A stretch of 63,707 bases of DNA, the filler included, from Nemertoderma westbladi (Eukaryota > Animalia > Xenacoelomorpha), in the NCBI GenBank assembly GCA_032718475.1. It is 4 parts of 4 records of this genome, joined end to end, with 100 filler letters (N's around TTAATTAATTAA, not from the genome) between each part and the next. Parts side by side here need not be neighbours in the genome. Positions count along the whole stretch, not along the records: positions 1 to 28,977 come from JAUCBJ010006238.1; 3 more parts are not named here. The stretch is one strand, 5' to 3'. The translations under genes were made by a program, and so were the position numbers. Shown here piece after piece: positions 2,736 to 62,937 of the stretch; the first letter of the stretch is position 1, and every line of letters begins with the position of its first letter. Under the pieces are notes generated by a model that saw only the letters and a list, made by a program, of their open reading frames with translations, was not told the origin of the DNA and ran no database searches.

Positions 2736-3446
2736 GAGACCCTGACGGGAGCCTGCAAGGCCACGTAGTTAGGCGGGGAGCAGCGGGGGTGAATCAACCC
2801 GACGGGAGCCTGCCAGGCCACGCAGTTGCACAGGGAGAGGCGAGGGTGAACAGACCCAGCCGCAGTAGAGACAGTGCGTCGACTAGAGAGGGGTGTAGAA
2901 ACGAAGTAAGAGGTAGTGAACTAAGAAGTGGCGAGTGGGGGGGGGGGGGGGCTACGGGTGCCCCACCACAGCAGATTAGTGGCGAGAGAGAGAGGGGGGG
3001 GGGGGGGCAGAGAATGCCCCACAAGGGGAGCGTAGAAGCGAAGTAAGTGGTAGTGAAGTAAGAAGTGGCGAGTGGGGGGGGGGGGGGCAGAGAATGCCCC
3101 ACAAGGGGGGCGTAGAAGCGAAGTAAGTGGTAGTGAAGTAAGAAGTGGGGGGGGGGGGGGCTATGGGTGCCCCACCACGAGAGATTAGTGGCGAGAGGGG
3201 GGGGGGGGGGGGGGGGGCAGAGAATGTCCCACAGGCGTCGGCGGATAATGCGCGGGGCGAGTTAGGTGAACCGCGGCACCCGGCGACGGAGAATAGTAGG
3301 GGGATGACGAGTATCCCCAGGAGGGTCCAACCAGATGGAGAGAGAGATGTGAGCGCCGAGAGTGGGCGAACGACGGGAATAGGATAGCGCGAACGACGGG
3401 ATTAGATCCGGAAGTCGCGGCGTATATACCGGTAGGTAGGCAAGAA

Positions 3447-5969
3447 GTGGATAGGCCTATATCGGTACCAGCACAGCAGCATGACTATAATATGCAGGGA
3501 CATAACATATATCCAGGGGAGGGGAGAGTTATTGCAGATAGGTGTATGGGCCCCAATATATTAACATCAACCCCAGTACCAAACATAATACCGGTGGGGG
3601 GGGGGGGGGGGGGACAGGGTGACATTCCCCCATTACAATATCAACAATACACTCAAACAGGAATAAGAACATCGAACCCCCTGGACGAGAACAGGTCGTG
3701 CGACACGGAAATATGGAGGGGGCCGTTACCCCCAATGATATATCCGACGCAAGTAAAGTCAACAGGCCCGACGGGCGGACCGCACCCAACAGGAGAATCT
3801 GTACAGCATCCCTCGAACCCATTGGAAGCACAGGCAATGGGAATGGCGACACTTATCGATGCACTCAAGACCAGAATCGAGTTACCACCAGTAGAGCCAT
3901 TTAAATTCGACGGAAGCAGACCGGAAGAATACCTGCAATTCCGACGCATGTACAGCAACGAGATATTAAGTAAGAACCTGACGCAGGCGGAGTGCCTAAA
4001 ATATTTACAGGTATATACAGGAGGCCCAGCGTACGACATCGTGAGGCAGTATCAGGGCATCGAGGGCGGCTTCACGACTGCATGGCGGGCCCTAGACAGG
4101 GAATACGGACACCCAGCCAAGATCATCCGGCAGACCTTGAGGGGGATAACATCGGGTGGCCTACAGGATAACCCTGTTAGCATAAAGACCTTTGCGAACA
4201 AGGTCGAGAAGGCGTTAATCGTGCTGAAGACGCTAGACGCGCCATACGAACTCAACGCATCTAATAATATCACCACGATAGCGCAGGCACTGCCGATCTG
4301 GCTACGGAGCAAGTGGAGGAAGATCGCCTTCTCCACCCGGGAGAAGAAAGGTGCGGAACCAGGGCTAGAGGAAATGTCGAACTTCCTCAACTACGAAGCA
4401 GAGTTGATTACAGACCCAGTCTATAGTGAGGATAGTTTGGGGAAGGCGCCGAAGACCGAATACAACAGGCCTAAACCCGAACATAATCCTGCAGATCCAT
4501 TCCCGAGAGTAAGACAGTCGCTACCACACGCGGCCACACAGGGGGCTACAAGCCCACAGTTAGCTGGGAGTAGGGCCACACCGTGGCAGGGACAGAAAGA
4601 AAATAACAACACAAACAAACATAATCCCAACATACCCAGTAGGCCGAGTCCAGATAACCAAAACACTAAATCGGTAGATATAAACCTACGCGCGATACGT
4701 GAAGGACTATACAGGGAACGCTACAATCCAGGATTCGAATGTCAATTGCATAGGGACGGAACCCATAAGACCATGAGTTGTAAGCATTGGCAAGCGTTGC
4801 CCAAACAAGATCGTGTAGCCTACACAGACGCAAACGGACTATGTCATCGATGCGTGGTAGAAGGACACAGATCCGGAGAGTGTAGAGAAACAGCGATAGG
4901 AGACGATGAGACTGGAGGCCAAACGATGGCTACGAGCACGACAGGAGCAAGAAGAAAGAGGAAAGTACTACTCGGGGTAGTACCAGTGAAGATAACAGGA
5001 AGGGGCGGCCGATCAGTCACAACATTAATGCTGGTCGACAGCGGAGCAGCCTTCACGCTGGTGGAGAATTGGGTGGCCGAGGAGATAGGGTTACAGACGA
5101 GGCCGAGTAGGTTGGCGGTAACTACTATCTCGAGTAAGGATGAGGTCCTGGAGATGAGGACGGGACGGTGCGAGATATCAGCGATTGCACCGGGATGTGA
5201 CTATGGGGCGACCATAGACCCCATTCAGATCATAGAATCGATCAATATTAATGCCAGGAGACCAACTAACATCGAGGTCGAGCAGTACCGGTTCCTGGAC
5301 GATATCGATTTTTCAATACCGGAGGTGGACGTCTCGAAGGTATCCATCATAGTGGGTATGGACTGCCCGACGGCCCACGAAAGAGTACAGACGATCTTCG
5401 GGGAAGACAGACAGCGGGATCCGACGGCGATTCTCACGCCGTTCGGATGGACGCTTAGCGGCCCAATTAAAACCAAGATTCCACACAGGGTGTCGGAAAC
5501 ATCAGGGTGCATGCTACCAGGCACCGTTAAGGACGTAGAGGAGAAACCAGAGACGGTAGATAAGCTAGAAGGGGAAGTAACAGCAAGAGTGTGGGCGGAG
5601 GAGAATGGATTCGACGCGGAAGACTTAGAGACAATGGGATGGAACAAGGATGTTCCCAGCAAGTATCGGTATGGGGATGGAGAGGAGTGGACGGCGAGAT
5701 GTCTGGAGGACAACAGTCCAGAGGAGTGTCCAGAGGAGTGTCCGGAGGAGTGTCCAGAGGAGTGTCCAGAGGAGTGTCCGGAAGAGACGCCGGTCCGGTT
5801 GAGAGGCATACCGACAAGGGGGAGGTCGAGTAAGAAGACAGGGTGGAGAAGGGATAGGATTACTATTGTCCGTTCTGTTTTGTCTGTTCTTCCGGTTTCT
5901 TTTCATTCTGCCGGCAGGCGAAGACCAGATGAAGGGTGGCATTTTGCTGCCAGGAGACAAGGAAATTAA
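3447..5969 (+). CDS. BEL/Pao Gag (DUF1759-like core, Cys/His knuckles) plus aspartic protease, truncated before RT
   Basis: LPPVEPFKFDG gag start motif, CQLH..HKTMSC and CHRCVVEGHRSGEC knuckles, LVDSGA protease motif, LTPFGWTLSG Pao motif; no YxDD follows; ends in (CPEE)n repeat. True start codon uncertain. Confidence 0.85.
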   Translation: MDRPISVPAQQHDYNMQGHNIYPGEGRVIADRCMGPNILTSTPVPNIIPVGGGGGGQGDIPPLQYQQYTQTGIRTSNPLDENRSCDTEIWRGPLPPMIYPTQVKSTGPTGGPHPTGESVQHPSNPLEAQAMGMATLIDALKTRIELPPVEPFKFDGSRPEEYLQFRRMYSNEILSKNLTQAECLKYLQVYTGGPAYDIVRQYQGIEGGFTTAWRALDREYGHPAKIIRQTLRGITSGGLQDNPVSIKTFANKVEKALIVLKTLDAPYELNASNNITTIAQALPIWLRSKWRKIAFSTREKKGAEPGLEEMSNFLNYEAELITDPVYSEDSLGKAPKTEYNRPKPEHNPADPFPRVRQSLPHAATQGATSPQLAGSRATPWQGQKENNNTNKHNPNIPSRPSPDNQNTKSVDINLRAIREGLYRERYNPGFECQLHRDGTHKTMSCKHWQALPKQDRVAYTDANGLCHRCVVEGHRSGECRETAIGDDETGGQTMATSTTGARRKRKVLLGVVPVKITGRGGRSVTTLMLVDSGAAFTLVENWVAEEIGLQTRPSRLAVTTISSKDEVLEMRTGRCEISAIAPGCDYGATIDPIQIIESININARRPTNIEVEQYRFLDDIDFSIPEVDVSKVSIIVGMDCPTAHERVQTIFGEDRQRDPTAILTPFGWTLSGPIKTKIPHRVSETSGCMLPGTVKDVEEKPETVDKLEGEVTARVWAEENGFDAEDLETMGWNKDVPSKYRYGDGEEWTARCLEDNSPEECPEECPEECPEECPEECPEETPVRLRGIPTRGRSSKKTGWRRDRITIVRSVLSVLPVSFHSAGRRRPDEGWHFAARRQGN

Positions 5970-6189: not shown

Positions 6190-7070
6190 AAGAAATAAAA
6201 TAATTAAAATAATAAAATAATAAAGTAAGTAGAAAGTTAGAAGTAAGAAAGTTAGTAGAAGATAGTAAGAAATTTAGAAGTTAGTAAGGAGTTAGAAGTA
6301 GGCAGTAAGGGAGTGTGGTATATTGACATGCCACAAGTAGTAGTAGAGAGTTTGTGGGCACCGGAAGCACCACGTAGAGAGTAGTAGTAGAGAGGTTGTG
6401 GGCACCGTAAGTGCCACGTAGAAAGTAGTAGTAGAGGGGTAGTGGGCACCAAAAGCGCCACGTAGTTAAGAGAGTTACGCAGAGAGTTAGTAGGGTCAGA
6501 GTTAGTAAAGTTAGAGAGTAAGAGGGTACGTAGTACCGTTAGTAGAGGTAGAGAGTTAGTAGAGTTAGGAGTTAGTAGAGTTAGAGAGTTAGAGAGTTAG
6601 TAGAGGTAGAGAGTTAGTAGAGGTAGAGAGTTAGGAGTTAGAGTTAGAGAGTTAGTAGAGGTAGAGAGTTAGTAGAGGTAGAGAGTTAGTAGAGTTAGAG
6701 AGTTAGTAGAATTAGAGTTAGTAGGGTTAGAGAGTTAGTAGAATAGAGTCGGTAGTAAGAGAGTTAGTAGAGTAAGCAGTGAGCAAGAAGTAAGATTTAG
6801 ATAAGGTAGATAGGATGATAGCACAGAGTATGATAGCATAAGAAATTTAGCGCCTTTGGGAGTGGTAGAGAGTACAGGAGCACAGGGAGATAGTGAGAGG
6901 AGGTGTTGGCGCGTGAGAGAGTGCAGACGAGTGCGATTCAAGTGTGGGGAGTTAAAGCGAGCAGAGTGAAGTTAGATAGAGTGGATTGAAGTTAGATAGA
7001 GTAAGAAAGAGTAGAGTGGAGTTAGAGTGGAGCTGAAGTAGAGTTAGAGTGAGTTTGAGTGAGAGAGTTT
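6190..7070 (+). repeat. Purine-rich low-complexity tract (AGAGTTAGT-type) in the 3' untranslated part of family A
   Basis: Degenerate AGAGTT/AGTAG repeats with a strong strand bias. Confidence 0.8.
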
Positions 7071-7312
7071 TTAAAATTGTGTGAGGATTCCACAATTGCC
7101 TCAAACAGAGACGCCAGATGTCTTGGTGCAACATAGGTTGCGGTTGCACCAAGAAGGGGTAGTAATATCATACCCAGAGGGAGTGGCCTGGAAAGCCGAC
7201 TCCAAGTAAAAGAACTCCTCCCCAAACCCGATAGTAGATCGGGTTCCAGCGGAATTGAAGCGCACTTTTAGGTGATGCTATCTTCTCACTGGGAAGATAG
7301 CATGGGGGGGAG

Positions 7313-7903
7313 TGTGAGCGGATTCAATTCCGCCGCATTACCCTCATAAAGTTGGGAAGTGGCACCTTTTCAGTAATATGTTGGAGGTACGAGATTGGTT
7401 ATTACCAATCTCGTATCACAACTAATAATCGGGGATAACACAAACCCCAAGGCCACACAAAGGGAGGTTAGAGGTCAAATCACCTCGGGAGAGGAAACAA
7501 CCAGCAGGGGCCAACAGCAGGGGGGGAACACTCCCAGATAGGGGAGAGGCGTGAAGTAGATTATTAGCCAATAGGGGTGAGGGAAGCATCCAGTAAGTAA
7601 GAGGCCACAGCGGCGTAGGAGTAATCACATATATATTATGTTGCATTACCATTACCGGTCCAGTTTACTCAGTGATCAGTTTAGTGCAGGCCGGCAACAT
7701 AGTTCGACCGTCATTGCAGTGCTGCTATACATATATTATTCTACCGGTTAACTCAGTCATCATTTACTCAGTGCTATCATTAGTCTATATTACACTCCAG
7801 TTGAACACCGAACTCAAACCCATTACATTCTATCACACCCACCCATCAGCCTGCTGTGACGCGTGAGAACTAAACCCGGTCGGGATCCCTTGATCCCGTC
7901 ACA
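7313..7903 (+). mobile_element. 3' LTR of family A
   Basis: Starts TGTGAGCGGATTCAATTC directly after the PPT and ends CCCGTCACA; similar termini at 9082/10024, 16757/17399 and 20294/19687. Confidence 0.9.
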
Positions 7904-8089: not shown

Positions 8090-8440
8090 CAGTTAATGAC
8101 GATGATGGTCTAAACTGTCTTGCTTCCACAGCTCTACACAAACCAACTGAACTACAAGCAATAAATGCAATGGTTATATTACTAACACATATTGAATATT
8201 GCTACTACTACGTGGACTGGCCAATGAATGCACCCCAATCAGATGGTGTTCTGCCCCATCATTGGCTAAACTATAATCTTTCCTTTGGCACTCCCTGTTC
8301 CCCTTTATACCCACGTGCTAGCCCCTTTGTCCCCCTAAGATGGCTTTCGGCCTCTCATCTCTACTTGTGGCTGGCAATGTGTATTGCCTGCGTTGGTTAT
8401 TATGTGACATTATATTGCTAATATCACCTGGCCAACTACA
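8090..8440 (-). mobile_element. Partial family A LTR
   Basis: Colinear with 19890-20230 (reverse-orientation LTR). Confidence 0.8.
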
Positions 8441-9425
8441 AATAATACGCTGCTGAGCGTAAACTTTTGTGAGATACTGTGTTTAATTAGTAAATTTATA
8501 TTATTAGTATTTGTTAAATTTATTATAGAGCTAAGAGATGTTGTTTTAGTTTTTTTTGTAAATAGACCTTTTGATTTGCATTTTCGAATTTCCAGGGGTA
8601 GTTCATTCCAAACCATATGGATCCGCTCACAGGAAGGTTTGAACTTTGAAGGCAATTATCTCAGAATGACACTATTTACACACGAAAAATACTACTTCTC
8701 CGCCATTTCTTATCAGTTTTTTTGCAATTATTTATTTATATAAAAGATAATTTCATAAACTTCAATAAATTTCGGCCAGTTTTCTTGATTTCATAATATG
8801 GGAAATATTATGAAATCAAGAAAACTGGCATTTTTTAATAAAAAATTTGAAAAACATGGGATTTTTAATTTTTAATTTTTTTTTACAAAATTGCCAATTA
8901 TCATATCAGAAATATAAAATAACATTTGATAACATCTATAACATTTGTGCTAAATTAACTGCGTACTAAATATTATATAACAAAATTAAATTACGGACAA
9001 AATGATAAAAAAAAGAAAAAAATCATGTAGGCATTGCATTGTTGCCAAGCTACTTATGAGGTTGGCCGTTGAATTTTTGATTGTGAGTGGATTCAATTCG
9101 CTGCACTACCTAGCAGAAAACGGGGAAAGTGGCTTTTTACCAATTATAGTTGGCTAAAAAACGCAATATACATTGTGAGCCACAGGGAGAGATGAATGGC
9201 TACAGGCCAGCTCAGTGGGACGAAGGAAGCTAGCACGTGGGCATCAGAGAACAGAACAGGGAGTGCCAAGGGAAGGAAGGATAGGTTAGCCAATGGTGGG
9301 GCAGAACACCATCTAATTGGGATGCATCCATTGGCCAGGCGACGTAGCAAGTAGCAATATTCCATATGTGTTAGTAATATAACCGTTGCATTTATTACCT
9401 GTTGTTCAGCTGGTTTGTGTAGAGC

Positions 9426-9787
9426 CAGCTGTCAAGTGCAATGCACACATCTCCAACCAGACACTATATTACATTGGAGGTCTCTCATTGGTTCCCCCAA
9501 GTTTGACACTAGAACAAAATCGCCTCCGCTTTGCAAGACATTGCTTTCACCGTGAGGACCAGCCAGTGCATAATCTTGTACTTTGGCAGCCTCATGGAGT
9601 GAATAAGCATGGTGGACAGCCCATGACTTTTTGATGAGACGCATCTTAAAGGACACTGGCCTTGAAGATGCGGATGATCTAGCAAATGTCATGGGTGATA
9701 GGGAGTTGTGGCGGTGCAATTTTGTTGATAAGCCGGCACAGCATTCTTAAAAATGCAGCTGCAATGCAGCATGTCGATCCTAGTAGA
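9426..9787 (+). mobile_element. 5'-truncated RTE-like LINE 3' end
   Basis: Near-identical to 55155-55510; short TAG tail; 10-bp TSD TGTGTAGAGC at 9416-9425 and 9788-9797. Confidence 0.9.
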
Positions 9788-10024
9788 TGTGTAGAGCTGT
9801 GGAAGCAAGACGGTTTAAACCGTCACTGTCGTCAGTAACCGTGCTATTATTGTATTCTGACATTACGAACAACGGCCATTAAAACTCAATTATTCTCTCG
9901 GCCTCTGGCCTTTCAGACTCAGATACCACAAGCCTTTCAGCAGCCAGCGGATGCGGCGACGCGTATTATCCAAAAGCAAACACACCGGTCGGGATTCCCT
10001 CGCCAACTCGGGTATCCTGTCACA

Positions 10025-10034
10025 GTTTAAACCG
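10025..10034 (+). promoter_or_regulatory. Non-tRNA primer-binding site GTTTAAACCG, complementary to LTR site 9811-9820
   Basis: Abuts the LTR end; reverse complement of CGGTTTAAAC at 9811-9820. Confidence 0.65.
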
Positions 10035-10169: not shown

Positions 10170-12505
10170 GTAGACCGTTGGGTCTATGCATTGGATGTAG
10201 CCCATGGGTTACCCGTTGGGTATACGGGTTGGATGTAGACCACGGGTTACCCGTTTGGTCTACGTATTGGGTGTTGCCCAAGGGGTGACCCGTTGGGTCT
10301 ACGGGTTGGATGTAACCCATGGGTGACCCGTTGGGTCTACGGGTTGGATGTAGCCCATGGGTTACCCGTTGGGTATACGGGTTGGATGTAGACCACGGGT
10401 TACCCGTTGGGTCTACGTATTGGGTGTTGCCCAAGGGGTGACCCGTTGGGTCTACGGGTTGGATGTAACCCATGGGTGACCCGTTGGGTCTACGGGTTGG
10501 ATGTAGCCCATGGGTGACCCGTTGGGTATACGGGTTGGATGAAGACCACGGGTTACCCGTTGGGTCTACGTATTGGGTGTTGCCCAAGGGGTGACCCGTT
10601 GGGTCTACGGGTTGGATGTAACCCATGGGTGACCCGTTAGGTCTACGGGCTGGATGTAGCCCATGGATGACCCGTTGGGTCTACTGGTTGGATGTAGCCC
10701 ACGGGTGACCCGTTGGGTCTACGGGTTGGATGTAGCCCATTGGTGACCCGTTGGGTCTACGGGTTGGAAGTAACCCATGGGTGACCCGTTGGGTCTACGG
10801 GTTGGATGTAGCCCATTGGTGACCCGTTGGGTCTACGGGTTGGAAGTAACCCATGGGTGACCCGTTGGGTCTACGGGTTGGATGTAACCCTTGGGTTACC
10901 CGTTGGGTCTACTGGTTGGATGTAGCCCATGGGTGACCCGTTGGGTCTACGCGTTGGATGTAACCCTTGGGTTACCCGTTGGGTCTACTGGTTGGATGTA
11001 GCCCATGGATGACCCGTTGGGTCTACTGGTTGGATGTAGCCCACGGGTGACCCGTTGGGTCTACGGGTTGGATGTAGCCCATTGGTGACCCGTTGGGTCT
11101 ACGGGTTGGAAGTAACCCATGGGTGACCCGTTGGGTCTACGGGTTGGATGTAGCCCATTGGTGACCCGTTGGGTCTACGGGTTGGAAGTAACCCATGGGT
11201 GACCCGTTGGGTCTACGGGTTGGATGTAGCCCATTGGTGACCCGTTGGGTCTACGGGTTGGAAGTAACCCATGGGTGACCCGTTGGGTCTACGGGTTGGA
11301 TGTAGCCCATTGGTGACCCGTTGGGTCTACGGGTTGGAAGTAACCCATGGGTGACCCGTTGGGTCTACGGGTTGGATGTAACCCTTGGGTTACCCGTTGG
11401 GTCTACTGGTTGGATGTAGCCCATGGGTGACCCGTTGGGTCTACGCGTTGGATGTAGCCCATGGGTGACCCGTTGGGTATACAGGTTGGATGTTGCCCAT
11501 GGGTGACTACTACGAGGATCGGCATGCTGCATTGCAGCTGCATTTTTAAGAATGCTGTGCCGGCTTATCGACAAAATTGCACCGCCACAATTCCTTATCA
11601 CCCATGATATTTGCTAGATCATCCGCATCTTCAAGGCCAGTGTCCTTTAAGATGCGTCTCAAGAAAGTCATGGGCTGTCCACCATGCTTATTCACTCCAT
11701 GAGGCTGCCAAAGTACAAGATTATGCACTGGCTGGTCCTCACGGCGAAAGCAATGTCCTGCAAAGCGGAGGCGATTTTGTTCTAGTGTCAAGCTTGGGGG
11801 AACCAATAAACACCTCCAATGTTATATAGTGTCTGGTTGGAGATGTGTGCATTGTACTTGACACAATTAACCCGGCGTAGCATTCTTGTGAATGTGCCAT
11901 CCAGAGATTTGGTGTCCTCAGCAGTTAGAGCCCAGTATGGACTCCCATGGGTGACCCGTTGGGTCTACGGTTTGGATTTAACCCATGGGTGACCCGTTGG
12001 GTCTACGGGTTGGAAGTAACCCATGGGTTAACCGTTGGGTCTACGGGTTGGATGTTGCCCATGGGTGACCCGTTTGGTCTACGGGTTGTATGTAGCCCAT
12101 GGGTGACCCGTTGGGTCTACGGGTTGGATGTAGCCCATGGGTGACCTGTTGGGTCTACGGGTTGTATGTAGCCCATGGGTGACCCGTTGGGTCTACGGGT
12201 TGGATGTAGCCCATGGGTGACCTGTTGGGTCTACGGGTTGGATGTAGCCCATGGGTGACCCGTTGGGTCTACGGGTTGGATGTAGCCCATGGGTGACCCG
12301 TTAGGTCTACGGGTTGGATGTAGCCCATGGGTGACCCGTTGGGTCTACGGGTTGGATGTAACCCATGGGTTACCCGTTGGGTCTACGGGTTTGATGTAAC
12401 CCATGGGTTACCCGTTGGGTCTACGGGTTGGATGTAACCAATGGGTTACCCGTTGGGTCTACGAGTTGGATGTAACCCATGGGTGACCCGTTGGGTCTAC
12501 GGGTT
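10170..12505. repeat. 38-bp satellite (GGGTGACCCGTTGGGTCTACGGGTTGGATGTAGCCCAT)n
   Basis: Direct periodicity with internal palindromes GGGTGACCC and CCCATGGG. Confidence 0.95.
11508..11943 (-). mobile_element. 5'-truncated RTE-like LINE inserted into the satellite
   Basis: Reverse complement of about 55075-55510; flanked by CCCATGGGTGAC at 11496-11507 and 11944-11955. Confidence 0.9.
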
Positions 12506-16299: not shown

Positions 16300-16756
16300 A
16301 CTGCAGCAACTCTATCGTATTAAAATAGAAGGTTTTAATTTCAGACATTTCGCCCCCTAATGGCAGACTGCATAATTCTGCACTTGTTAGCGTCCTCCCC
16401 AAACACGAAGACTGTGGTGTAGTAGTCCTCTGCCAAGTGCCAAGTATCAGCAAAAAAGCATTCATAAACAACAAAATTGTAGGTTTCCTCATTCAGACAT
16501 TTCATCCTCTAATAGCGGCAGACTGGGGAACTGTAGATTGGTCATCGTCTCCCCAAATACACACCCTGCTACAGTGTAGTATACTCTGCTTTGTATCAGC
16601 AAAAAAACATTATAAACATATTGTGTAAAGGACCTAAGTATTAGCTAAAAATCATTATTAATAACAAAATAGGATAAGATTTTCACTTTCAGACATTTCG
16701 CCTCCTAGTGGCAGACTGAAGAACCGCAAACTGGTCGGCGTCCTCCCAACACGCAG
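16300..16756. repeat. Degenerate 160-190-bp tandem repeat (TTCAGACATTTCGCC..GGCAGACTG..CGTCCTCCC), target of several insertions
   Basis: Three diverged copies here, related sequence at about 14630-14720. Confidence 0.65.
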
Positions 16757-19100
16757 TGTAAGTGGATTCAATTCCGTGCATTACCCAACGAAAATGGGAA
16801 TAGTGGCATTTTACCAATATAGTTGGCGAGGTGCATTATTAGCAATAATAATGTCACCTCATAACCAACTGGGGCGATACACGCCGTAAGCCACAGAGAG
16901 TTGAGAGGTCAAACCATCTCAGAGGGACAAACAAGCTAGTAAGGCTAGCACGAAGGGATAACGGCAACAGGGAGTGGCGAGGTGACAATTAATCAGGTTA
17001 AGCCAATGGTGGGCGGGAAAGCACATTGGGGGTGATTAGAGCGCATCTATTGGATATTCGGGCCACTCAGTAGCGTAGGGGTAATTTAACATGTGTCAGT
17101 GATATAACCGTTGTGATTATTGATTACCAGTTTAGTTGGTTCCTTACAGTTGTGAGACTGGAACAGTTTTGACCATCGTCGTCGTTGTCACTAACCGTTG
17201 TATTGCATGCTATTATATTCAGACTGTGCTATTATCAATTACTGTGATTATTAATACTGACAACAGAAATCAGTCATTTTCAATGGCCTTCGGCCTAATA
17301 CATCCAGTAGCAGCTCAGCAGCCCACAGACGCGGCGATGCGTACAATTCACACACCGGTCGGGAGCCGATACTGCCAACTCTCGTTGGCTCCCGTCACAG
17401 TCAAAACTGTCCACCTGACACCTGAGACAGCTAGTGACGGCAATGGTGGGGCCGACGGTACAGCGCCGGATGAGGAGGGAAGGCAAAGTCCAGGAGGAAG
17501 ACGTCAGGATGAGTGATCGCCTGCGACGAGGGTACATCGCCACCAAGAGGTTGTTGGAGGACGCTAGAGAGGGGAGAAAGGTAGACCAGCCTGAGTTGTA
17601 CCAAAGGCTAGGTGAGTGCAACAAACATTTTCGCTATCTAGTCCGATTTGGGCAGGGGGAACTGGCAAGCGAGAGGGCGAGGGGGGTCGCCACAGAACTG
17701 TTCGAATTGTGGCGATCCGAGGTGGTGGAGGCCAGTGTAGTGTACGTCGGGCCTTATCTAGTAGATGTGAGGGGGATAAAGTTAGTGGGATGGGCGGACC
17801 CGCACGACAGCGAATCTGAGGTTTCCCCAAAGATTCGGTGTCGTCGGTTAGTAGGAATCCCAGTAAACGCGGGAAAATTAGTAGGACGGGCAGGCGACGG
17901 GAGTCCATCGCAATCGAAATGTCTGCTACATCCTCCGCAAAAGCAAGAAGGGTATTAGAGATAGATCAGGCGTGTAAAGCTGAGAGGATTGTGAGAGAGG
18001 CAGAGTTGGCCAATCAGAGTATTAGAGAGGATAGAGAGAGAGAGAGGGCGGGTAAACGTATGCGGGATGATATGCATACCCGGTTGAGGGGGTTAAGGCA
18101 ATATCAGGCAAAACAGAAACGCCGATTAGAACTGGCAAAAATGGGTTTATCAGAGAGCGAGGCTGGTTCGGGGAATATTTATGAGGAACCAGGGGTGATG
18201 GAAACCTTTGTTAATACCCCACTTACACGTACCGGACGACAGATCCAAGACTGGTGTGACCAGTAATAACAATATGTTTAACGAAAACCTTAATATTAAT
18301 AGTACCGTAATAGATAACCCTAGTACTAATGAAACTTTTCTTGCAGGAGATAATATTTTACTCGGTAATAATTCTAATATTGGTGCACAAAATAATTTAA
18401 GTAATAACATAAATAACAGTGAACAAAATAATCAAAATAATATAAATAATAACGTAACATATCAACAGGGCGAGGCTAATAGTGGTGCAATTAATATAAA
18501 CATAGGGGAAACCGGCAATTTGCCTAGTGAGAGCCTACAAGGCCACGCAGTTGCCCAGGGAGGCGTCGACTAATGCGTCGACTGGAAGGGAACATGGGGG
18601 CGAGGCAAGAGGTGATGGGTGGAGGGGGGGGGGGGGGCTATGGGCACCCCACCACAACCAATTAATGACGAGAGGGGGGTGGGGGGCAGAGAATGCCCCA
18701 CGAGCGTCGGCAGATAATGCGCACGGTGAGTTAAGTGAACCGTGGCACCCGACGACAGAGGATAGTAGGAGGACTGCGAATATCCGCGGGGCCATCCAAC
18801 CGGGCAGAGGGAGGAACGTTGGTGCCGTAAGCGGCCAAATGAGGAAACGTCGAGCCCACTCGGAAGACGGAAGAAGAACAGTGGAGTTCATCCGGGAGGT
18901 TGAAATGAGATCTCGTGAGGGAGGACATTACGCTGAAGTCAAAGGAAGCGAGGAGGGACGAGGAAGTGTTGCTACGGGCAACCAAAGAGGAAGGACGGAC
19001 AGTGAACCGTCGATAGTCAAGGTGGAGAAAGAAAGCCGGTGGGTTCGTACTCCGGGAGATTGCCGTCGCCCCGGAGAAACACAACCTGGTGAAATATACC
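16757..19100 (+). mobile_element. Family A element: 5' LTR (16757-17399) plus gag N-terminal region, 3'-truncated
   Basis: LTR termini; ORFs 17434-17958, 17838-18266 and 18208-18573, the later parts homologous to 110-620; 18560-18830 homologous to 2870-3370; right boundary approximate. Confidence 0.8.
17400..17410 (+). promoter_or_regulatory. Non-tRNA primer-binding site GTCAAAACTGT, complementary to LTR site 17163-17173
   Basis: 11/11 complementary to ACAGTTTTGAC. Confidence 0.7.
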
Positions 19101-20294
19101 ACACACAGGGGGATAGTCTGGGTTTGATGTTATTATATTGGGGCCCATACACCCATCTGCAATACCCCCCCTTCCCCTGGGTATATATTGTATCCCTGCC
19201 TCAACCCTCGCTGCCTCTCTCGCTTCTCGCTCTTTGCGCTTGTTCTCTTCTCTCTCAACCTGTACTCTACGATCATTTATTTCCTTCTCAGCCCACTCCG
19301 CCTCCCTTGCCTCACGCTCTCTATAATCTCTCGCCACCTTCTCGGCCTTCTCTTTGCACTCTCTCGCTAGTTGCCTTTCCCTTTCTAGTAATGCGGTCCC
19401 CTCATCCAGCTGTCTCTCTAGTTCCTTTTAATCCAGCGTGACTATGTCTAGCTGACACGCCAGATCTACCTCTAACACCCTTCTTGCTTTTGCGGAGGAT
19501 GTAGTGGAATCCGGTGTGGCGCGCCGGTACCGTCTCATTGCTGCCGAATTGTCTGGTCTCTGTCGCTCGGGGTTCGCGGCGGGCTCACTTCTCCCTCTGG
19601 ACCTTGGGGCTGTTGTTCACTCATTGTTGGCGCTGGCTGTGGTCACAGTTTATTTAAATGGGTGTTGACTCTCTCCGGTTTTTAACTGTGACGGGATCCG
19701 GGAGTTGGTTTCTAAACCCCAACTGGTGTGTTGTTTGGTACTATACGCGTCGCCGCGTCCGTAGGCTGCTGAAAGGCTGTAGTCTGAATATTGAGGCCGA
19801 AGGCCGTTGGAATAACTGAGTTTTTAGTGTCTGTTGTTATAATGTCAGAACATATAATGGCACAGTCAGAATATAATAGCATGGTAATGACGACGGTTAA
19901 AAACCGTTCCGGTCTCACAACTCTACAGATACCAACTGAATCATAATCAACAAGTACAACGATTATATTGCTAACACATATTAGTTACTCCTACTGTACT
20001 GAGCGGCCTGGCCAATAGATGCGTTCCAATCACCTGTTTTCCCCTCCCATCATTGGCTAACCTAATTAATTTCCATCTCGCCACCCCCTGTTGCCACTGT
20101 CCCCAATTGCTAGCCCCTTTGTCCCCTGAGATGGCTTATAGCCTCTCAACTCTATACGTGGCCGGCAGTGTGTGTTGCCTGAGTTGGTTATTATGTGACA
20201 TTATATTGGTAATGTCACCTTCCAAACTGTAATTGGTAAAAAGTCACTTCGCCCATTTTCCGCTGGGTAGTGCAAGGAATTGAATCCGCTTACA
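19100..20294 (-). mobile_element. Family A element in opposite orientation: 5' LTR (20294-19687) plus internally deleted gag region
   Basis: Reverse complement starts TGTAAGCGGATTCAATTCC; 19450-19505 matches 17926-17981; 19110-19195 matches 3505-3585. Confidence 0.8.
19676..19686 (-). promoter_or_regulatory. Non-tRNA primer-binding site GTTAAAAACCG, complementary to LTR site 19896-19906
   Basis: 11/11 complementary, including a compensated change in homopolymer length. Confidence 0.7.
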
Positions 20295-20317
20295 GCTCTG
20301 TCATATCAAAAAATAAT

Positions 20318-20542
20318 TTATGGGTGACTAAAAATTAATTCCTGGTAGTTTGAATTTCCCGGTAACTTGTAGGTCGAGATTTTGACTGGCCATTCATTGG
20401 TTAGGGTAGTGGGAAACCATCCAATTGCACGTTTTTTTGAATATAATTACTTAAAGTAACCAATGAATGGCCTGTCCAAATCTCGCCTTACAAGGTACCG
20501 GGAAATTCAAACTTCCAAAAATTAATTTATGGTCGACCATAA
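20318..20542. mobile_element. Palindromic MITE-like element
   Basis: About 85-bp imperfect inverted arms (TTTGAATTTCCCGGTA..CCATTCATTGGTTA / TAACCAATGAATGG..TACCGGGAAATTCAAA). Confidence 0.65.
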
Positions 20543-26158: not shown

Positions 26159-28977
26159 CCTTATTAACTCTTACCTTTTCTAACGCAGGTACTCTACAGC
26201 CCTTATTAACTCTTACCTTTTCTAACGCAGGTACTCTACAGCCCTTATTAACTCTTACCTTTTCTAACGCAGGTACTCTACAGCCCTTATTAACTCTTAC
26301 CTTTTCTAACGCAGGTACTCACAGCCCTATTAACTCTTACCTTTTCTAACGCAGGTACTCTACAGCCCTTATTAACTCTTACCTTTTCTAACGCAGGTAC
26401 TCTACAGCCCTTATTAACTCTTACCTTTTCTAACGCAGGTACTCTACAGCCCTTATTAACTCTTACCTTTTCTAACGCAGGTACTCTACAGCCCTTATTA
26501 ACTCTTACCTTTTCTAACGCAGGTACTCTACAGCCCTTATTAACTCTTACCTTTTCTAACGCAGGTACTCTACAGCCCTTATTAACTCTTACCTTTTCTA
26601 ACGCAGGTACTCTACAGCCCTTATTAACTCTTACCTTTTCTAACGCAGGTACTCTACAGCCCTTATTAACTCTTACCTTTTCTAACGCAGGTACTCTACA
26701 GCCCTTATTAACTCTTACCTTTTCTAACGCAGGTACTCTACAGCCCTTATTAACTCTTACCTTTTCTAACGCAGGTACTCTACAGCCCTTATTAACTCTT
26801 ACCTTTTCTAACGCAGGTACTCTACAGCCCTTATTAACTCTTACCTTTTCTAACGCAGGTACTCTACAGCCCTTATTAACTCTTACCTTTTCTAACGCAG
26901 GTACTCTACAGCCCTTATTAACTCTTACCTTTTCTAACGCAGGTACTCTACAGCCCTTATTAACTCTTACCTTTTCTAACGCAGGTACTCTACAGCCCTT
27001 ATTAACTCTTACCTTTTCTAACGCAGGTACTCTACAGCCCTTATTAACTCTTACCTTTTCTAACGCAGGTACTCTACAGCCCTTATTAACTCTTACCTTT
27101 TCTAACGCAGGTACTCTACAGCCCTTATTAACTCTTACCTTTTCTAACGCAGGTACTCTACAGCCCTTATTAACTCTTACCTTTTCTAACGCAGGTACTC
27201 TACAGCCCTTATTAACTCTTACCTTTTCTAACGCAGGTACTCTACAGCCCTTATTAACTCTTACCTTTTCTAACGCAGGTACTCTACAGCCCTTATTAAC
27301 TCTTACCTTTTCTAACGCAGGTACTCTACAGCCCTTATTAACTCTTACCTTTTCTAACGCAGGTACTCTACAGCCCTTATTAACTCTTACCTTTTCTAAC
27401 GCAGGTACTCTACAGCCCTTATTAACTCTTACCTTTTCTAACGCAGGTACTCTACAGCCCTTATTAACTCTTACCTTTTCTAACGCAGGTACTCTACAGC
27501 CCTTATTAACTCTTACCTTTTCTAACGCAGGTACTCTACAGCCCTTATTAACTCTTACCTTTTCTAACGCAGGTACTCTACAGCCCTTATTAACTCTTAC
27601 CTTTTCTAACGCAGGTACTCTACAGCCCTTATTAACTCTTACCTTTTCTAACGCAGGTACTCTACAGCCCTTATTAACTCTTACCTTTTCTAACGCAGGT
27701 ACTCTACAGCCCTTATTAACTCTTACCTTTTCTAACGCAGGTACTCTACAGCCCTTATTAACTCTTACCTTTTCTAACGCAGGTACTCTACAGCCCTTAT
27801 TAACTCTTACCTTTTCTAACGCAGGTACTCTACAGCCCTTATTAACTCTTACCTTTTCTAACGCAGGTACTCTACAGCCCTTATTAACTCTTACCTTTTC
27901 TAACGCAGGTACTCTACAGCCCTTATTAACTCTTACCTTTTCTAACGCAGGTACTCTACAGCCCTTATTAACTCTTACCTTTTCTAACGCAGGTACTCTA
28001 CAGCCCTTATTAACTCTTGCCTTTTCTAACGCAGGTACTCTACAGCCCTTATTAACTCTTACCTTTTCTAACGCAGGTACTCTACAGCCCTTATTAACTC
28101 TTACCTTTTCTAACGCAGGTACTCTACAGCCCTTATTAACTCTTACCTTTTCTAACGCAGGTACTCTACAGCCCTTATTAACTCTTACCTTTTCTAACGC
28201 AGGTACTCTACAGCCCTTATTAACTCTTACCTTTTCTAACGCAGGTACTCTACAGCCCTTATTAACTCTTACCTTTTCTAACGCAGGTACTCTACAGCCC
28301 TTATTAACTCTTACCTTTTCTAACGCAGGTACTCTACAGCCCTTATTAACTCTTACCTTTTCTAACGCAGTGTACTCTACAGCCCTTATTAACTCTTACC
28401 TTTTCTAACGCAGGTACTCTACAGCCCTTATTAACTCTTACCTTTTCTAACGCAGGTACTCCACAGCCCTTATTAACTCTTACCTTTTCTAACGCAGGTA
28501 CTCTACAGCCCTTATTAACTCTTACCTTTTCTAACGCAGGTACTCTACAGCCCTTATTAACTCTTACCTTTTCTAACGCAGGTACTCTACAGCCCTTATT
28601 AACTCTTACCTTTTCTAACGCAGGTACTCTACAGCCCTTATTAACTCTTACCTTTTCTAACGCAGGTACTCTACAGCCCTTATTAACTCTTACCTTTTCT
28701 AACGCAGGTACTCCACAGCCCTTATTAACTCTTACCTTTTCTAACGCAGGTACGTACACTACAGCCCTTATTAACTCTTACCTTTTCTAACGCAGGTACT
28801 CCACAGCCCTTATTAACTCTTACCTTTTCTAACGCAGGTACTCTACAGCCCTTATTAACTCTTACCTTTTCTATCGCAGGTACTCTACAGCCCTTATTAA
28901 CTCTTACCTTTTCTAACGCAGGTACTCTACAGCCCTTATTAACTCTTACCTTTTCTAACGCAGGTACTCTACAACCC
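26159..28977 (+). repeat. 42-bp tandem array (about 67 copies to contig end): 30 nt of intron end plus the first 12 nt of SLC35B3 exon 5
   Basis: Unit CCTTATTAACTCTTACCTTTTCTAACGCAG|GTACTCTACAGC; GTA CTC TAC AGC = VLYS, the expected continuation of NTEV. Confidence 0.9.
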
Positions 28978-29077
28978 NNNNNNNNNNNNNNNNNNNNNNN
29001 NNNNNNNNNNNNNNNNNNNNNTTAATTAATTAANNNNNNNNNNNNNNNNNNNNNNNNNNNNNNNNNNNNNNNNNNNN
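28978..29077. other. Artificial contig spacer
   Basis: N44 + TTAATTAATTAA (stops in six frames) + N44. Confidence 0.97.
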
Positions 29078-29078
29078 A

Positions 29079-29322
29079 ATCGTAGTTATTGGAGTTGTCA
29101 GCGTTTTTCTCGGCGTCTTTGAAATATCCGGTAAGACTTTTGACGTCAAGGCCTTGCGCGCCTTCCGCGTGTTACGCCCCTTGCGGTTGGTTTCGGGAGT
29201 GCCCAGTCTACAGATTGTACTCAACTCAATTCTCAAAGCAATGATTCCACTACTCCATATAGCCTTACTTGTTATATTTGTTATAATAATCTACGCAATT
29301 ATTGGACTAGAGATGTTTTCAG
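29079..29322 (+). CDS. L-type voltage-gated calcium channel alpha1 (Cav1), exon covering IS3-IS5 (5' end cut by gap)
   Basis: [31 protein letters not shown]; donor G|GTTCGT phase 1. Confidence 0.92.
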
Positions 29323-30924
29323 GTTCGTATAACTCTATATTATAACTAACCGCCATAGTCGTAGACCTTGGTAACCTAGGTAACCGCCATAGTCGTAGAC
29401 CTTGGCAAAAACATAAGACGAAAAGGGACATAAAATTATAGCTATAAGTATTCATTTTCAGATTTTGTGTTATAACATAATTAGCGTATCAAGCTTTTCC
29501 GAAACTTATAAGTTATCGACAACCTCTTGTGTTTGCGATATGTTGAGGATCTATGTTTGATATTGGACCCAGATCTGGACGGACATAATGTGATGTTTTT
29601 TACTATATTATCCGAAATATTAAGACTATCCCTATATTTATATAAATGACGTATGGTGGAAGCTCCTAACTTTTAATTAAAATACTATAATTAGGAGCCG
29701 CCCAGGCAGGTTGCTGATAAAAGTCCAGATAGGGGGGAAGGGAACTTGTCGCAATAATAATTCATCCCTCTCCAGGGGAAATTGGACGCAAATAACAGTT
29801 GATTACTCTCAAAAATAAAACTGTAACCTGTTCTATTGTGTTTAGTTTATTGTTTTGGTTAAAATAACGTGCCACTGTAGGCCTAACCTGCTCCTTTCCC
29901 TAAATTGCGAATTTAACATTGAAGCGGGATATTAATTCGCTAGCTAAGATGGAATTTGCGTCCAGTTCCCCCCACACCCCCCTGTCTCTAAAAGTCCGGC
30001 CTGAAATTAATTTGAGTTGATTGAATAATCTAGACCTAATTCGAAACGGCTCTAACGATTTTTCCCAATTTTTCATCACTGATAGACTCTATAACTGTAC
30101 TGTAAGGTCAGACACAGAGGGGTCAGGGGGTCTGGCAATGGGATAAATTGATTGGGTAGTTCTGAACCTCGTTAGAACTCGACTAAATTTAATTAAATTT
30201 AGTTATCAACAAGTTAATTAAAATAAAGTACGTTTTTTTATATCCGTCTTTATGTAAGTTTTTTTTACGTCCGTACTTTAAAACCTTTCGCCTTTCGCGT
30301 TCCTGTTTATACAGAAAGACACCGTCTACGCCTACCGAAGTGTTTTTGTCACAAATCGATATTGATTACAGTTCAGGATGTTCAGGTGGATTACCTGATA
30401 AAGATAAATCAAGATAGTATCATATGTTGTTTACCAGCCGTGTATGTTGCAGAATCGCAACCTTGAGTAATTCTGCACAATAGAGAATTTGATATACTAT
30501 AACATATTTGGTATGTTTTTTATTTAATCCAGGATTTAAAAGGATTAAATTTCCACCATCCCATATCCATTTCGTAGGAGACGGGCAGCGCCTATCTAGG
30601 CACAAACAACATCGTACTACAGTACATACACCACTTGAATTAGATTAATGTTCTGCTTCGTTAACAGGCAATAACATTCCAAGGGCGTAACTTCTTCTGA
30701 AAGTAGTCAGTATTATTCCGTACAGTATAGAGGGCAGAAAGCCGAGTAGGCCTATAGTTCGGACAGACATGTGAGTCAGGCGTTAGCCAGTCCGGTAGCA
30801 ACAGACAGCCAGTCAGTTAGAATGTCTGATATAACAAAAAAACTGGGTGTGGGGCGAGCCACAGTGTGAAGTAAACTTTAGGGGACGGTTTAATGGTATG
30901 GTGATTGTATGTAGGTTTGATTGT

Positions 30925-32375: not shown

Positions 32376-33931
32376 AAAATATTTTGAGTAGTGATTTGTG
32401 TTCCTATAGCTACTGTTAGTTACTATAGTTACCTATAGTTACCGTTAAGTAATCAGGCATTGTAAACCAAATTTATTTTAAATAGATAAGTAAAACAATT
32501 GAGAATCATCACCCATTTTTAACACCCTCGCAGATGCTCACAAATTGTATTAGTTTATTCGTAAATTAAAATCTTTAACAATAAGTTGCTCTGACTATTT
32601 CTCCGCTTAACTCCGAAGCTGCTGGTTGAAAAGTTGATAGGAAGTAAAAATAGCTGCACTGAGTGTAGGCCTACCCACACGGAGGGCCTAATTCATATAC
32701 TGGGTCCCTTGAATGTGACTGCGATCTCAACCGCTCACCCATACCCTTTATTACATAATATTGTAATAAAGGGTATTAAGCTAAATTCGAATTAATAATA
32801 ATAATTAAAATACAATATAAAGAAGTTGTCGTCTCTAATCTAGAGCCCTTGCTATGATTACAGAATTAATGTTGATTACAATAAACTCGCTTTTGAAACA
32901 TCATTCTACCACTCTAGTGCGGGGGGGGGGGGGGGGGGGGTGGACTCATAATTAATAATTACATATATTATATCAACTGTTACATAAGAACTAAATTCTC
33001 GAAATAATAACTATTTCTATTCGATTTAAATAAACTAATTTCCATTTTGTCTTTTTCCACTTTCCCCTTGCGAGCTAAATACATATTATTTGCTTGCGAG
33101 ATAAATAAACTAGAATTGTTGTGAAATGTTTGGCACTATGAGCCGCCACCATAGAAAACAACTATATACTGTTATTTATTCGCTTGTTTTGAGTTTGTCA
33201 GATATGTTTGAGAATTAATTTCCCTAATTTAAATATGGTTGTAACTCGACGTTATTTATTTGTTGCGGCTTAGGAGACTCTAATTGTTTGCCTTATGATT
33301 GGCAATTGCAACAATCAAAAAAACAATTTAAATATGTTTGAAACCAAATGCGGTATTGATTTGAAATAAAGCCCGATCAATAGAATCCAAGCATCACTCC
33401 ATCATCAAATCTGTTTCATGAATGATGGGCAACCACGATAAATAAATACGGAATATTAATTATTGAGCAACCATCTCACCTATCCGGTATCTCTGAGTAC
33501 GTGACTTTCATTTCACTTGCTAAATTTTCTTTGTAGAATATAGTGAGTTAGGTATAATGTACTTCCGGCGCGTATTACCCCATTAACGAATGGTTTAAAT
33601 TTAGCTTCATGTTTACGCAGATAAATATATGAATCGTTAAATATACTAATAGCTCTGTTGACTATAAAGATATTGTCGATATACTAAATAACACTATTAT
33701 AGCTTTATCGCTCTTTTAAGTCAAAATATAGCTGCTATTAATAATAACAAAATTATTTCACACATAAAATTAATATATATATATATCAGTAATGATTAAA
33801 GGTAAAATCAAATTACTTTTTAGCCTAATTTTACGAGATTGTCATTTTATTGTCTACTGCAGTATTTACCTGTAATCTATATTTTCTACTTCTCTTACTA
33901 CTTTATAAACTTTAAAACTTTTATATTTTAG

Positions 33932-36900
33932 GTCACATGAACTATACGTGCTACAACTCGGACATGTCGTTAGCGTTGGCGACACCCAGACCGTGTGGCG
34001 GCTCGTTCAAGTGCCCAGAAGGAACTCAATGCTTGAAAAGTGACGCCTGGAAAGGCCCAAATCGCGGAATTACAAACTTTAACAATATCGGACTCGCTAT
34101 GATTACGGTCTTCCAGTGCATAACAATGGAGGGATGGACTCAGGTGTTGTACTGGGTCAACGACTGCATGGGTAACAGCCTCAGTTGGATTTACTTTGTA
34201 AGCCTTATTATCATCGGCAGCTTTTTTGTGCTTAATCTTATCTTAGGTGTGCTGAGTGGCGAGTTCTCTAAGGAGAGAGAGCGGGCGAAAGCGCGCGGAG
34301 AATTTCAAAAACTCCGGGAAAAACAACAAATTGAGGAGGATTTGAAGGGATACCTTGACTGGATTACCCAGGCTGAGGATCTCGACCCCGAGGAGAGCGA
34401 CGAGGTTGATCCAGCGGTACTAGCCCCTGGCAGACACATCGTCCATTTGCACAAAATAACTGCTAGCGAGGCCGACTCGTCTGAGGATATGGGCAGTCAG
34501 TTTGACATGCCTCGTCAAGATACCCGGTGGGAAGAGAAACTCAAGTGGTTGCGGAAATGGAATCGCCGTTGTCGTAGAGGTTGTAGAAAGGTTGTTAAAT
34601 CAAGTCCTTTTTATTGGTTAGTTATAATATTAGTGTTTCTTAATACGGGAATCCTTGCTGTAGAACATTATGGACAGCCAGACTGGCTGGATGATCTCCA
34701 ACAAGCCGCTAATCTTGTGTTTATTACTCTATTCACAATAGAAATGATTATAAAGATGTATAGTTTGGGACTGAGCGCGTATTTGGTGTCGTTGTTTAAT
34801 AGGTTTGATTGTATTGTAGTGTTTAGTTCAATAATGGAAGTTATTTTAATCGAAGCAAATGTGATACCCGCTATAGGTATGTCTGTGCTGCGTTGTGTTC
34901 GTTTACTAAGAGTGTTTCGCGTCACAAAACATTGGAATGCCCTGCGCAATCTCGTGGCCTCATTGCTAAACTCACTCCGTGCTATCGCCTCTTTACTTTT
35001 ACTTATATTTTTGTTTATTCTTATTTTTGCCTTATTGGGGATGCAACTTTTTGGCGGCAAGTTTCTTTTTGATGAAACTTCTGACAAACCGCGGAGCAAT
35101 TATGACACGTTCTTTAACTCACTGCTCACTGTGTTCCAAATCATAACAGGTGAAGATTGGAATGAGATCATGTACAATGGTATCGACGCATACAGCGGGA
35201 TTACAGAACTAAAAGGAGTCCTGATATCTTCATACTTCATAATTCTGTTTATATGCGGCAACTATATATTGCTTAACGTGTTCTTGGCAATTGCTGTGGA
35301 TAATTTGGCTGATGCGGAGAGTCTAACCCAGGCTGATAAAGAGAAAGAAGAAAAGGAGGAGCAGAGAAAGCGAAGTAAAAATAAAGAAAAGTCAGCGGTT
35401 AAAGAGAATAACGATGGTAGCATTGGAATGAACCATGTTGGTTCACCGGACGCAGATGGAGCTGGCCACGCTCAGGATTCACACTACGCAGCGAAGGATG
35501 ACGACGGAGATACTGGCGATCAGTCTGGAGGAGCCCGGCCGCGTAGATCATCCGAGATCAGCATGGTTGACCCGGACGATGATAGTAAGAAACCAATCCC
35601 CGAAGGGACTTCATTGTTCGTCTTCAAGCAAAACAACCCATTACGAGTTTTCTTCTCCAAAATTATTAAAAATAGTTATTTTACAAATTTCATTCTTGTC
35701 TGTATTTTGATATCATCGGCATTATTGGCCTGTGAAAACCCAGTGGATGCAAATTCACAGGCCAATGTAATTCTCGGGTATTTTGACTACTTCTTTACAA
35801 CTATATTTACCGTGGAAATAATACTAAAAATTGTTGTTTTTGGGGTTGTGTTTCATAAAGGTGCTTTTTGCCGAAGTGCTTTTAACTTGTTGGATTTGCT
35901 CGTAGTTAGTGTTTCTTTAATTTCCATATTTGCAAAAGCTGATCAACTGTCTGTGATGAAAATTTTGAGGGTTTTTCGGGTGTTGCGACCTTTACGAGCC
36001 ATAAACCGAGCAAAAGGCCTTAAAACTGTTGTGCAATGCGTAATTGTAGCTATTAAAACTATTGGCAACATTGTACTTGTTATGATGCTACTACAATTTA
36101 TGTTTAGTGTAATGGGCATTCAATTATTCAAAGGTGCGTTCTATAGTTGCACGGATTCCATTATAACAAAAATGGAGGAATGCCACGGACCTTTTGTGCG
36201 TTATGTAGATGCAGACATAAACAATGCCCAAGAAATGGAGCGCGAATGGAAAGTGAACCCCTTTAATTTTGATGATTTGTCTCAAGCTATGTTGGCATGG
36301 TTTACAGTGACCACGTTCGAGGGTTGGCCCTTGTTACTCTACGTCAGTATCGACGCTACAAAGGAAGGTGAAGGTCCTCGATACCAGAACCGACCGCTAG
36401 TTGGTGTACTATTTATTATCTACATCATTGTCATGGCCTTCTTTATGGTTAATGTGTTTGTTGGTTTTGTCATCGTCACGTTCCAAAGTGAAGGGGAACA
36501 GGAATACAAAGACTGCGAATTGGGGCGGAACGAACGTCAATGCATAGAATTCGTTCTCAAATCGAAGCCTCAGAAACGATACATACCTAAAATACATTGG
36601 CAGTACAAGGTTTGGAGTGTGGTGACGTCACGTGGGTTCGAATATGTCGTGTTCATATTTATTATGGTGAACACGGTTCTTTTAGCAATGAAATATGATG
36701 GGCAAGAAGGGGATTATGATAAGGCAATGGGTATAATGAACATGATATTTACAGCTGTGTTCTTAGCTGAATTCGTTCTAAAAGTAGTCGCATTCAATCC
36801 AAAGAATTACTTTAGTGATTGGTGGAATGTATTTGACTTCATCATCGTCCTTGGCAGTATCATTGACATCTCCCTCGAGACTCTCGGTTCCGGGGAAGGC

Positions 36901-50266: not shown

Positions 50267-50366
50267 NNNNNNNNNNNNNNNNNNNNNNNNNNNNNNNNNN
50301 NNNNNNNNNNTTAATTAATTAANNNNNNNNNNNNNNNNNNNNNNNNNNNNNNNNNNNNNNNNNNNN
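50267..50366. other. Artificial contig spacer
   Basis: N44 + TTAATTAATTAA + N44. Confidence 0.97.
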
Positions 50367-51687: not shown

Positions 51688-51899
51688 CTACTACTACTAC
51701 TATTACTATCGGCAGCTGCATTATATATATATATTACATATATATTAGAATTAGAAATGCCTGTCTGGGTTGTCAACAAAATTGCGCCGCCTCAACTCGC
51801 TATCACCACTGACATTTGCTAGATCATCCGCATCTTCAAAGCCAGTGTCCTTTAAGATGCGTCTCAAGATAGTCATGGTTGTCCACCATGCTTATTCAC
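51688..51899 (-). mobile_element. RTE-like LINE 3' fragment
   Basis: (CTA)n tail at 51688-51708; reverse complement of about 55325-55500. Confidence 0.8.
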
Positions 51900-57787: not shown

Positions 57788-57887
57788 NNNNNNNNNNNNN
57801 NNNNNNNNNNNNNNNNNNNNNNNNNNNNNNNTTAATTAATTAANNNNNNNNNNNNNNNNNNNNNNNNNNNNNNNNNNNNNNNNNNNN
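57788..57887. other. Artificial contig spacer
   Basis: N44 + TTAATTAATTAA + N44. Confidence 0.97.
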
Positions 57888-62925: not shown

Positions 62926-62937
62926 ATTGCCTCTCAC
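62926..62937 (-). promoter_or_regulatory. Non-tRNA primer-binding site GTGAGAGGCAAT, complementary to LTR site 63194-63205
   Basis: 12/12 complementarity; same TCACA|GT junction as family A. Confidence 0.7.

Follow-up and report, generated by a model that had tools for sequence, protein, structure and literature searches.

The BEL/Pao retrotransposons found in a 63,707-nt stretch of Nemertoderma westbladi DNA (the whole stretch analysed, hereafter called the window) are likely to start minus-strand DNA synthesis from a fragment of their own 5' RNA, in a manner akin to the self-priming of Tf1. Judging from the sequence, we give this reading a probability of about 0.85. The primer would come from a site of 10-12 nt inside the LTR that is perfectly complementary to the bases immediately following the LTR. 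An earlier note on this DNA had claimed self-priming for this BEL/Pao lineage from three elements of one family (A1-A3 of family A), and the claim gains support as the best reading from a further, independent case in the window (element B) and from a strong signal in distant relatives.

All three pairs reported for A1, A2 and A3 are exact reverse complements at their coordinates (Table 1), with 226, 204 and 209 nt, respectively, between the site and the LTR end. The fourth pair, 12 nt long and overlooked in the earlier note, belongs to element B. TGG is absent from the 20 nt that follow each of the four 5' LTRs (A1-A3 and B), in agreement with the reported lack of a TGG-starting PBS, and among offsets -5 to +10 the longest match in A1-A3 peaks at LTR end +1, which bears out the placement of the PBS directly after TCACA. 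In all four elements, each primer finds its best target in its own PBS. Three paired positions distinguish A1 from A2, each altered on both sides, and A3 carries one extra base that is matched on both sides. The compensated substitutions and length change described earlier are thus real; since the PBS would be copied from the primer in each cycle, the paired changes speak for templating and not necessarily for selection on a helix. A variant of the site is present in every family A LTR (A1-A5), and LTR identity among A1, A2 and A3 amounts to 65-73% over aligned columns (73% for A1 versus A3).

Family A elements have TG...CA LTRs and a purine tract before the 3' LTR (A5 shares both ends with A1-A3). 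Because A5 follows the purine tract, shares the ...TCCCGTCACA end with A1-A3 and then diverges into unrelated flank, the LTR end of the family is independently fixed. A1-A3 are truncated; they lack pol, and the window has no 3' LTR belonging to them. For each of their LTRs, the longest match at LTR end +1 was equalled in 1 of 3000 dinucleotide shuffles. In a looser test that accepted offsets 0-5 and contiguous or spliced matches, the match was reached in 3/1000 (A1), 9/1000 (A2) and 2/1000 (A3) shuffles; the LTR/PBS match of B was reached in none of 1000. As a background, 0.85% of 17,325 sampled window positions have a match of at least 10 nt in the preceding 650 nt.

Table 1. Parts of the BEL/Pao elements in the window; functional labels are predictions.
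Feature	Position	Strand	Basis or remark
A1 5' LTR, TGT...ACA, 643 nt	16757-17399	+	LTR comparison
A1 predicted promoter, TATA-like and Inr-like	17103-17107; 17131-17137	+	motif pair conserved in A1-A4
A1 predicted self-primer ACAGTTTTGAC	17163-17173	+	exact pair
A1 predicted U5 terminal hairpin, 10-bp stem	17360-17394	+	
A1 putative PBS GTCAAAACTGT, directly after LTR	17400-17410	+	exact pair
A1 broken 5' gag region, end approximate	17509-18800	+	homology to 153-484 and A3 start
A2 5' LTR, interrupted by nested repeat 9430-9786	9082-10024	+	
A2 predicted promoter, TATA-like and Inr-like	9378; 9405	+	nested repeat between promoter and primer site
A2 predicted self-primer CGGTTTAAAC	9811-9820	+	exact pair
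A2 putative PBS GTTTAAACCG	10025-10034	+	exact pair
A2 gag-like ATG	10063	+	tandem array from 10175 cuts gag off
A3 5' LTR, 608 nt	19687-20294	-	TATA-like at 19967, Inr-like at 19940
A3 predicted self-primer CGGTTTTTAAC	19896-19906	-	exact pair
A3 putative PBS GTTAAAAACCG	19676-19686	-	exact pair; gag-like ATG at 19624
A4 partial LTR	8090-8437	-	site variant ACAGTTTAGAC 8118-8108; no LTR end, no PBS
A5 3' LTR, behind purine tract 7304-7312	7313-7903	+	site variant ATAGTTCGAC 7699-7708
Element D gag-protease ORF	3300-5966	+	DUF1759 (E 1.8e-10), aspartyl protease; anchors family A in BEL/Pao
B 5' LTR region	62938-63707	-	5' end not located; TATA-like at 63275
B U5 terminal hairpin	62958-62939	-	
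B predicted self-primer ATTGCCTCTCAC	63194-63205	-	70 nt below TATATAAA
B putative PBS GTGAGAGGCAAT, directly after ...CTCTCACA	62926-62937	-	exact pair
B gag-pol, three frames: protease, RT, Pao peptidase A17 region	57888-62903	-	stops at sequence gap

By their proteins, the window elements are BEL/Pao, and the priming described for this family by the ICTV does not fit them. The domains of B follow the order protease, RT, A17 region (Peptidase_A17, E 1e-16) and then the gap, with no integrase observed, where the BEL/Pao order is protease-RT-RNase H-integrase; 99 homologous proteins were found for its RT, nearly all with Pao peptidase or DUF1759, and the best matches come from fish, echinoderms, corals, molluscs and a nemertean, insect elements being more distant. 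A1-A3 are assigned to BEL/Pao by homology, through a chain that links them to the gag-protease ORF of element D, behind which no pol was found. The best matches of the family A gag-protease are four relative loci (L016, L019, L009 and L042) that are of the spliced type described below where they could be scored. A DIRS-type or Ty3/gypsy identity, including the Tf1/sushi chromovirus clade, was rejected, as domains and homologues are those of BEL/Pao. The LTR of B shows no nucleotide likeness to family A LTRs. Its end is inferred from TCACA, the terminal hairpin and an ATG 139 nt downstream, there being no second LTR copy in the window.

Some further features of these elements were recorded. A1 (+) and A3 (-), both truncated in gag, meet tail to tail, and the interval between them (17400-19686) contains neither pol nor a 3' LTR. 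The repeat nested in the A2 LTR is young, with copies ~95% identical that also occur at 11506-11946, 55073-55514 and 51688-51899; it is flanked by duplicated TGTGTAGAGC, and the copy near 55073 adjoins an RT fragment and DUF6451. In element D, gag contains a 60-nt tandem array, and arrays rich in purines occupy the expected pol region (595-1490, 5716-5786 and 6194-7063).

For distant relatives, the RT of B was aligned with 18 of the 99 homologues, and the best 80 of 525 confirmed metagenome-contig loci were taken. The LTR end could be fixed in 11 relative families by comparing 5' and 3' parts, and ten of these lack a TGG site directly after the LTR. No contiguous match of at least 10 nt was found in the 11 families. 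In eight of them, a match of 11-15 nt forms only when the two sides of a GT-AG intron in the LTR (76-366 nt long) are joined, a match reached in 0-7 of 1000 shuffles; the intron donors are GTAAGT, GTGAGT, GTACGT and GTAAGC, and 65-90% of the bases before the AG are pyrimidines. The other three families are L040, which lacks a self-match and has a TGG site 5 nt beyond the LTR, L013, whose best match is 9 nt in an LTR cut by the contig start, and L068, with an unclear LTR end and no match of at least 10 nt. Pairs between families reached at least 11 nt in only 5 of 210 cases, four of them among three families with a common PBS core. A spliced primer was rejected for the window's own elements, in all four of which the spliced matches are shorter than the contiguous ones.

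A scan without fixed ends covered 77 of the 80 loci (three lack a 5' region), which are redundant, with several copies per family; matches of at least 11 nt were found in 27/77 loci versus 14/231 shuffled ones. Of these 27 loci, 22 are spliced and five contiguous, one of the latter (L039) possibly by chance; the other 50 stay below 11 nt, many of them without enough LTR sequence. The PBS starts with GT or AT in 26 of the 27 matching loci, as it does, with GT, in all four window elements, and AA occupies PBS positions 6-7 in 20/27. In the relatives, 4-8 nt separate the splice junction from the primer 3' end, and the LTR is followed by a spacer of 0-5 nt. In viral contigs, the motif at the start of the family A LTR was matched four times, with no match longer than 22 nt, and the RT alignment found no relative there.

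These data bear on whether the complementarity has to do with priming at all. The pairing might be a structural element (for packaging, dimerisation or translation control), a product of chance or an inverted duplication, priming being left to something unseen; LTR leaders are structured, the A2 site sits in a 14-nt palindrome (ACGGTTTAAACCGT), and the background given above is not nil. We nevertheless consider this highly improbable. In all four window elements the match begins precisely at the primer position, and in the relatives it begins 0-5 nt from an ACA. It has the length of a PBS (10-15 nt) and takes the place of the TGG site. It is also missing in the TGG family L040 and in the A5 3' LTR compared with its own flank, a negative control in which no self-match was found and 584/1000 shuffles reached the best match.

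A host tRNA fragment could also act as the primer, for instance a 5' half cut at the anticodon loop, the LTR site then being a decoy or switch that mimics the tRNA and base-pairs with the PBS. In its final seven bases (mostly TT-NNN-AC/T), the site does resemble an anticodon loop: among 28 sites, A occurs at -2 in 28/28 and TT at -7/-6 in 20/28, although these rows are 24 chosen representatives plus the window's four, the 27-locus PBS count above being unselected. Half-tRNA priming is known in Ty1/copia lineages, according to the available text of one source (PMC6317226). A tRNA fragment would leave unexplained that each LTR tracks its own PBS letter for letter and that a match can exist only across a splice junction. 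Moreover, two of the anticodons implied by this register, TTA (A3) and CTA (L078), would read stop codons, and no Rfam match was obtained in 16700-20400. We consider this explanation improbable. ARAGORN detected no tRNA in the window or in the 80 relative loci. As a separate observation, a family with a TGG-type PBS (L040:56-80, L067:18-42) is nested among self-complementary ones and is sister to the spliced L059 (90/95). Its TGG site resembles a tRNA-Tyr PBS, and the family may be a reversion or may have retained the ancestral state.

Under self-priming from the LTR-derived RNA, transcription would start in the 5' LTR, at the site or up to ~30 nt upstream of it. The site would anneal to the PBS across a 200-260-nt loop ending in the U5 hairpin, and RT/RNase H would cut just 3' of the site's AC, freeing the primer end as in Tf1. 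Strong-stop DNA would then jump to the 3' R copy, R being presumably long enough for strand transfer because all four elements (A1-A3 and B) have poly(A)-like hexamers at a distance of 38-123 nt downstream of the site. Plus-strand synthesis would recopy the PBS from the primer, and the match would thereby be kept through substitutions, length changes and a shifted splice site. In most scorable relatives, the primer would span the GT-AG LTR intron and exist only after splicing.

Where the RNA starts matters to this scheme. A1-A4 share a TATA-like ATATAA ~60 nt upstream of the site and an Inr-like motif ~30 nt below that ATATAA; both labels follow consensus motifs. Because this conserved pair lies ~60 and ~30 nt upstream, the primer is probably not the first 11 nt of the RNA in family A, and the motifs suggest a position ~30-43 nt into it, unlike in Tf1. 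Distances from the TATA-like motif to the primer 3' end were 43-46 nt in two spliced families (L010, L032) and 71-82 nt in five contiguous elements or families (A1, A3, B, L049, L056), these being small numbers, with the motif absent in most families. When RNA starting at the site was folded, the primer/PBS helix was predicted in all four elements (0.73-1.0). With a start 24-35 nt upstream, near the Inr-like motif, it was predicted only in A1 (in A2, up to 24 nt), and local hairpins are predicted to win in A2, A3 and B. Either the transcript would start nearer to the site than the motifs suggest, or chaperoning by Gag would be needed.

The predicted hiding of the 5' copy in local hairpins, if the RNA starts at the Inr-like motif, would suit a scheme in which the transcript's own 3' end, with the site copy of the 3' LTR, folds back onto the PBS and primes without 5' cleavage. 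Both LTRs carry the site, and the sequence fits pairing by either copy. We regard this scheme as very improbable: the hexamers downstream of the site in 4/4 elements predict an RNA that runs past the site and is tailed, and with a spliced 3' copy the intron would be lost from every descendant, yet it persists in the intron-bearing relatives.

The history of the intron was examined on an RT tree of 25 rows, comprising B, 17 spliced and four contiguous representatives, L040 and two insect proteins. This tree leaves out L039, L080 and the unscored loci, is not reliably rooted and has B as a long branch. The contiguous type requires at least three changes, on the starred branches of the tree. A single clade of all five contiguous rows was rejected (p-AU 2e-62, for a group fixed after the first tree had been viewed and including the long branch of B), and the spliced and contiguous labels clustered no more than shuffled ones (168/500). 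The nearest rows to B are spliced types where scored. It is likely, as the simpler reading under an unreliable root, that the contiguous forms, including those of the window, arose by repeated intron loss, for which there is an obvious route because a spliced 3' R region can be copied. Repeated gain in place of loss would also accord with a tree that lacks a reliable root. On the reading of repeated loss, the window elements are predicted to be forms that lost the LTR intron.

For the family at large, we lean towards a broader proposal. In a large and widespread aquatic branch of BEL/Pao, a primer from the element's own 5' RNA would replace the tRNA, ancestrally across an LTR intron, so that host splicing would license reverse transcription; certain lineages, the two of the window among them, would have lost the intron repeatedly and would carry the primer in pre-spliced form. 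The internal primer would end in a conserved TT-NNN-AC cleavage signal that may descend from a tRNA anticodon loop.

Self-priming outside BEL/Pao offers the closest comparisons. In Tf1, nt 1-11 of the transcript anneal to the PBS, and the RNase H cleavage falls between nt 11 and nt 12, as given in the available parts of the sources (PMC7175516, PMC4600332, PMC5341516). The window elements resemble Tf1 and Tf2 of Schizosaccharomyces pombe, Tj1 of S. japonicus, Tf1/sushi and Tcn1 in a PBS that pairs with ~11 nt of their own LTR-derived RNA (PMC7175516, PMC4600332, PMC5341516, PMC6317226, as far as the available text goes), and they share with the Tf1/sushi group the lack of a tRNA site and a U5 terminal hairpin, at least as that group is described there. 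They differ from Tf1/sushi and Tcn1, which are Ty3/gypsy, in belonging to the BEL/Pao superfamily, from Tf1 in the predicted place of the primer in family A, and, for most scorable relatives, in a primer that spans an intron; the mechanism was shown for Tf1 and is inferred here. In the parts of the literature available, self-priming is reported for Tf1/sushi, Tcn1 and the plant TAR copia elements (PMC6317226) and listed for fungal gypsy elements (PMC6934838, PMC5445492). The TAR lineage (Houba, Osr-1) is likewise a case outside Ty3/gypsy predicted from complementarity alone, in plant Ty1/copia, and the available text on it mentions no intron-spanning primer (PMC6317226).

Within BEL/Pao, the ICTV account of Belpaoviridae describes a PBS of 18 nt, complementary to the 3' end of tRNA-Arg or tRNA-Gly, together with priming by host tRNA (PMC8742986). 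The window elements agree with that account in LTRs of 0.6-0.8 kb, a purine tract, a DUF1759 gag, protease, RT, a Pao peptidase region and an animal host (PMC8742986), and depart from it in having no TGG site directly after the LTR, as do the ten relative families mentioned above. The available text of the largest BEL/Pao survey (PMC3118150) contains no occurrence of primer, PBS or tRNA, that of the Sinbad paper (PMC554778) no mention of PBS, tRNA or priming, and those of four other papers (PMC3601003, PMC5443660, PMC3286476, PMC8220671) nothing on BEL/Pao priming. In the literature searched, mostly titles and the beginnings of abstracts, with supplements, subscription papers and Repbase, GyDB and Dfam entries lying outside it, no self-priming or splice-made primer is reported in BEL/Pao. 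Cer7 of Caenorhabditis elegans, a BEL/Pao element, has reportedly been proposed to provide a primer itself; in that case the primer would be a distinct tRNA-like sequence within the element and not a segment derived from the LTR.

The rest of the window is repeat-rich animal DNA. It contains an L-type calcium channel (Cav1) gene at 33916-39099 (+), with an upstream exon at 29139-29324, in which the part corresponding to residues 275-1798 of a hemichordate protein is encoded by a single uninterrupted frame of ~4.4 kb; the best matches are 60-69% across hemichordates, arthropods, molluscs and vertebrates. Because L-type calcium channel genes usually have dozens of exons, this single long frame looks like heavy intron loss. 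At 26159-28977, a 42-nt unit is repeated in 67 nearly identical copies; the array can be read without stops in either direction over ~700 codons and ends at a sequence gap. The gaps at 28978-29077, 50267-50366 and 57788-57887 share one form, 12 called bases with 44 N on either side (filler joins).

If true, self-priming in these elements would redefine a whole family of LTR retroelements that the ICTV gives as tRNA-primed, make BEL/Pao the third superfamily where self-priming arose, and explain why PBS-based annotation misses such elements. It may also provide an escape from silencing by PBS-directed tRNA 3' fragments. A primer made at a splice junction would couple reverse transcription to host splicing, and the same intron would then have to be handled oppositely at the two ends of one RNA.
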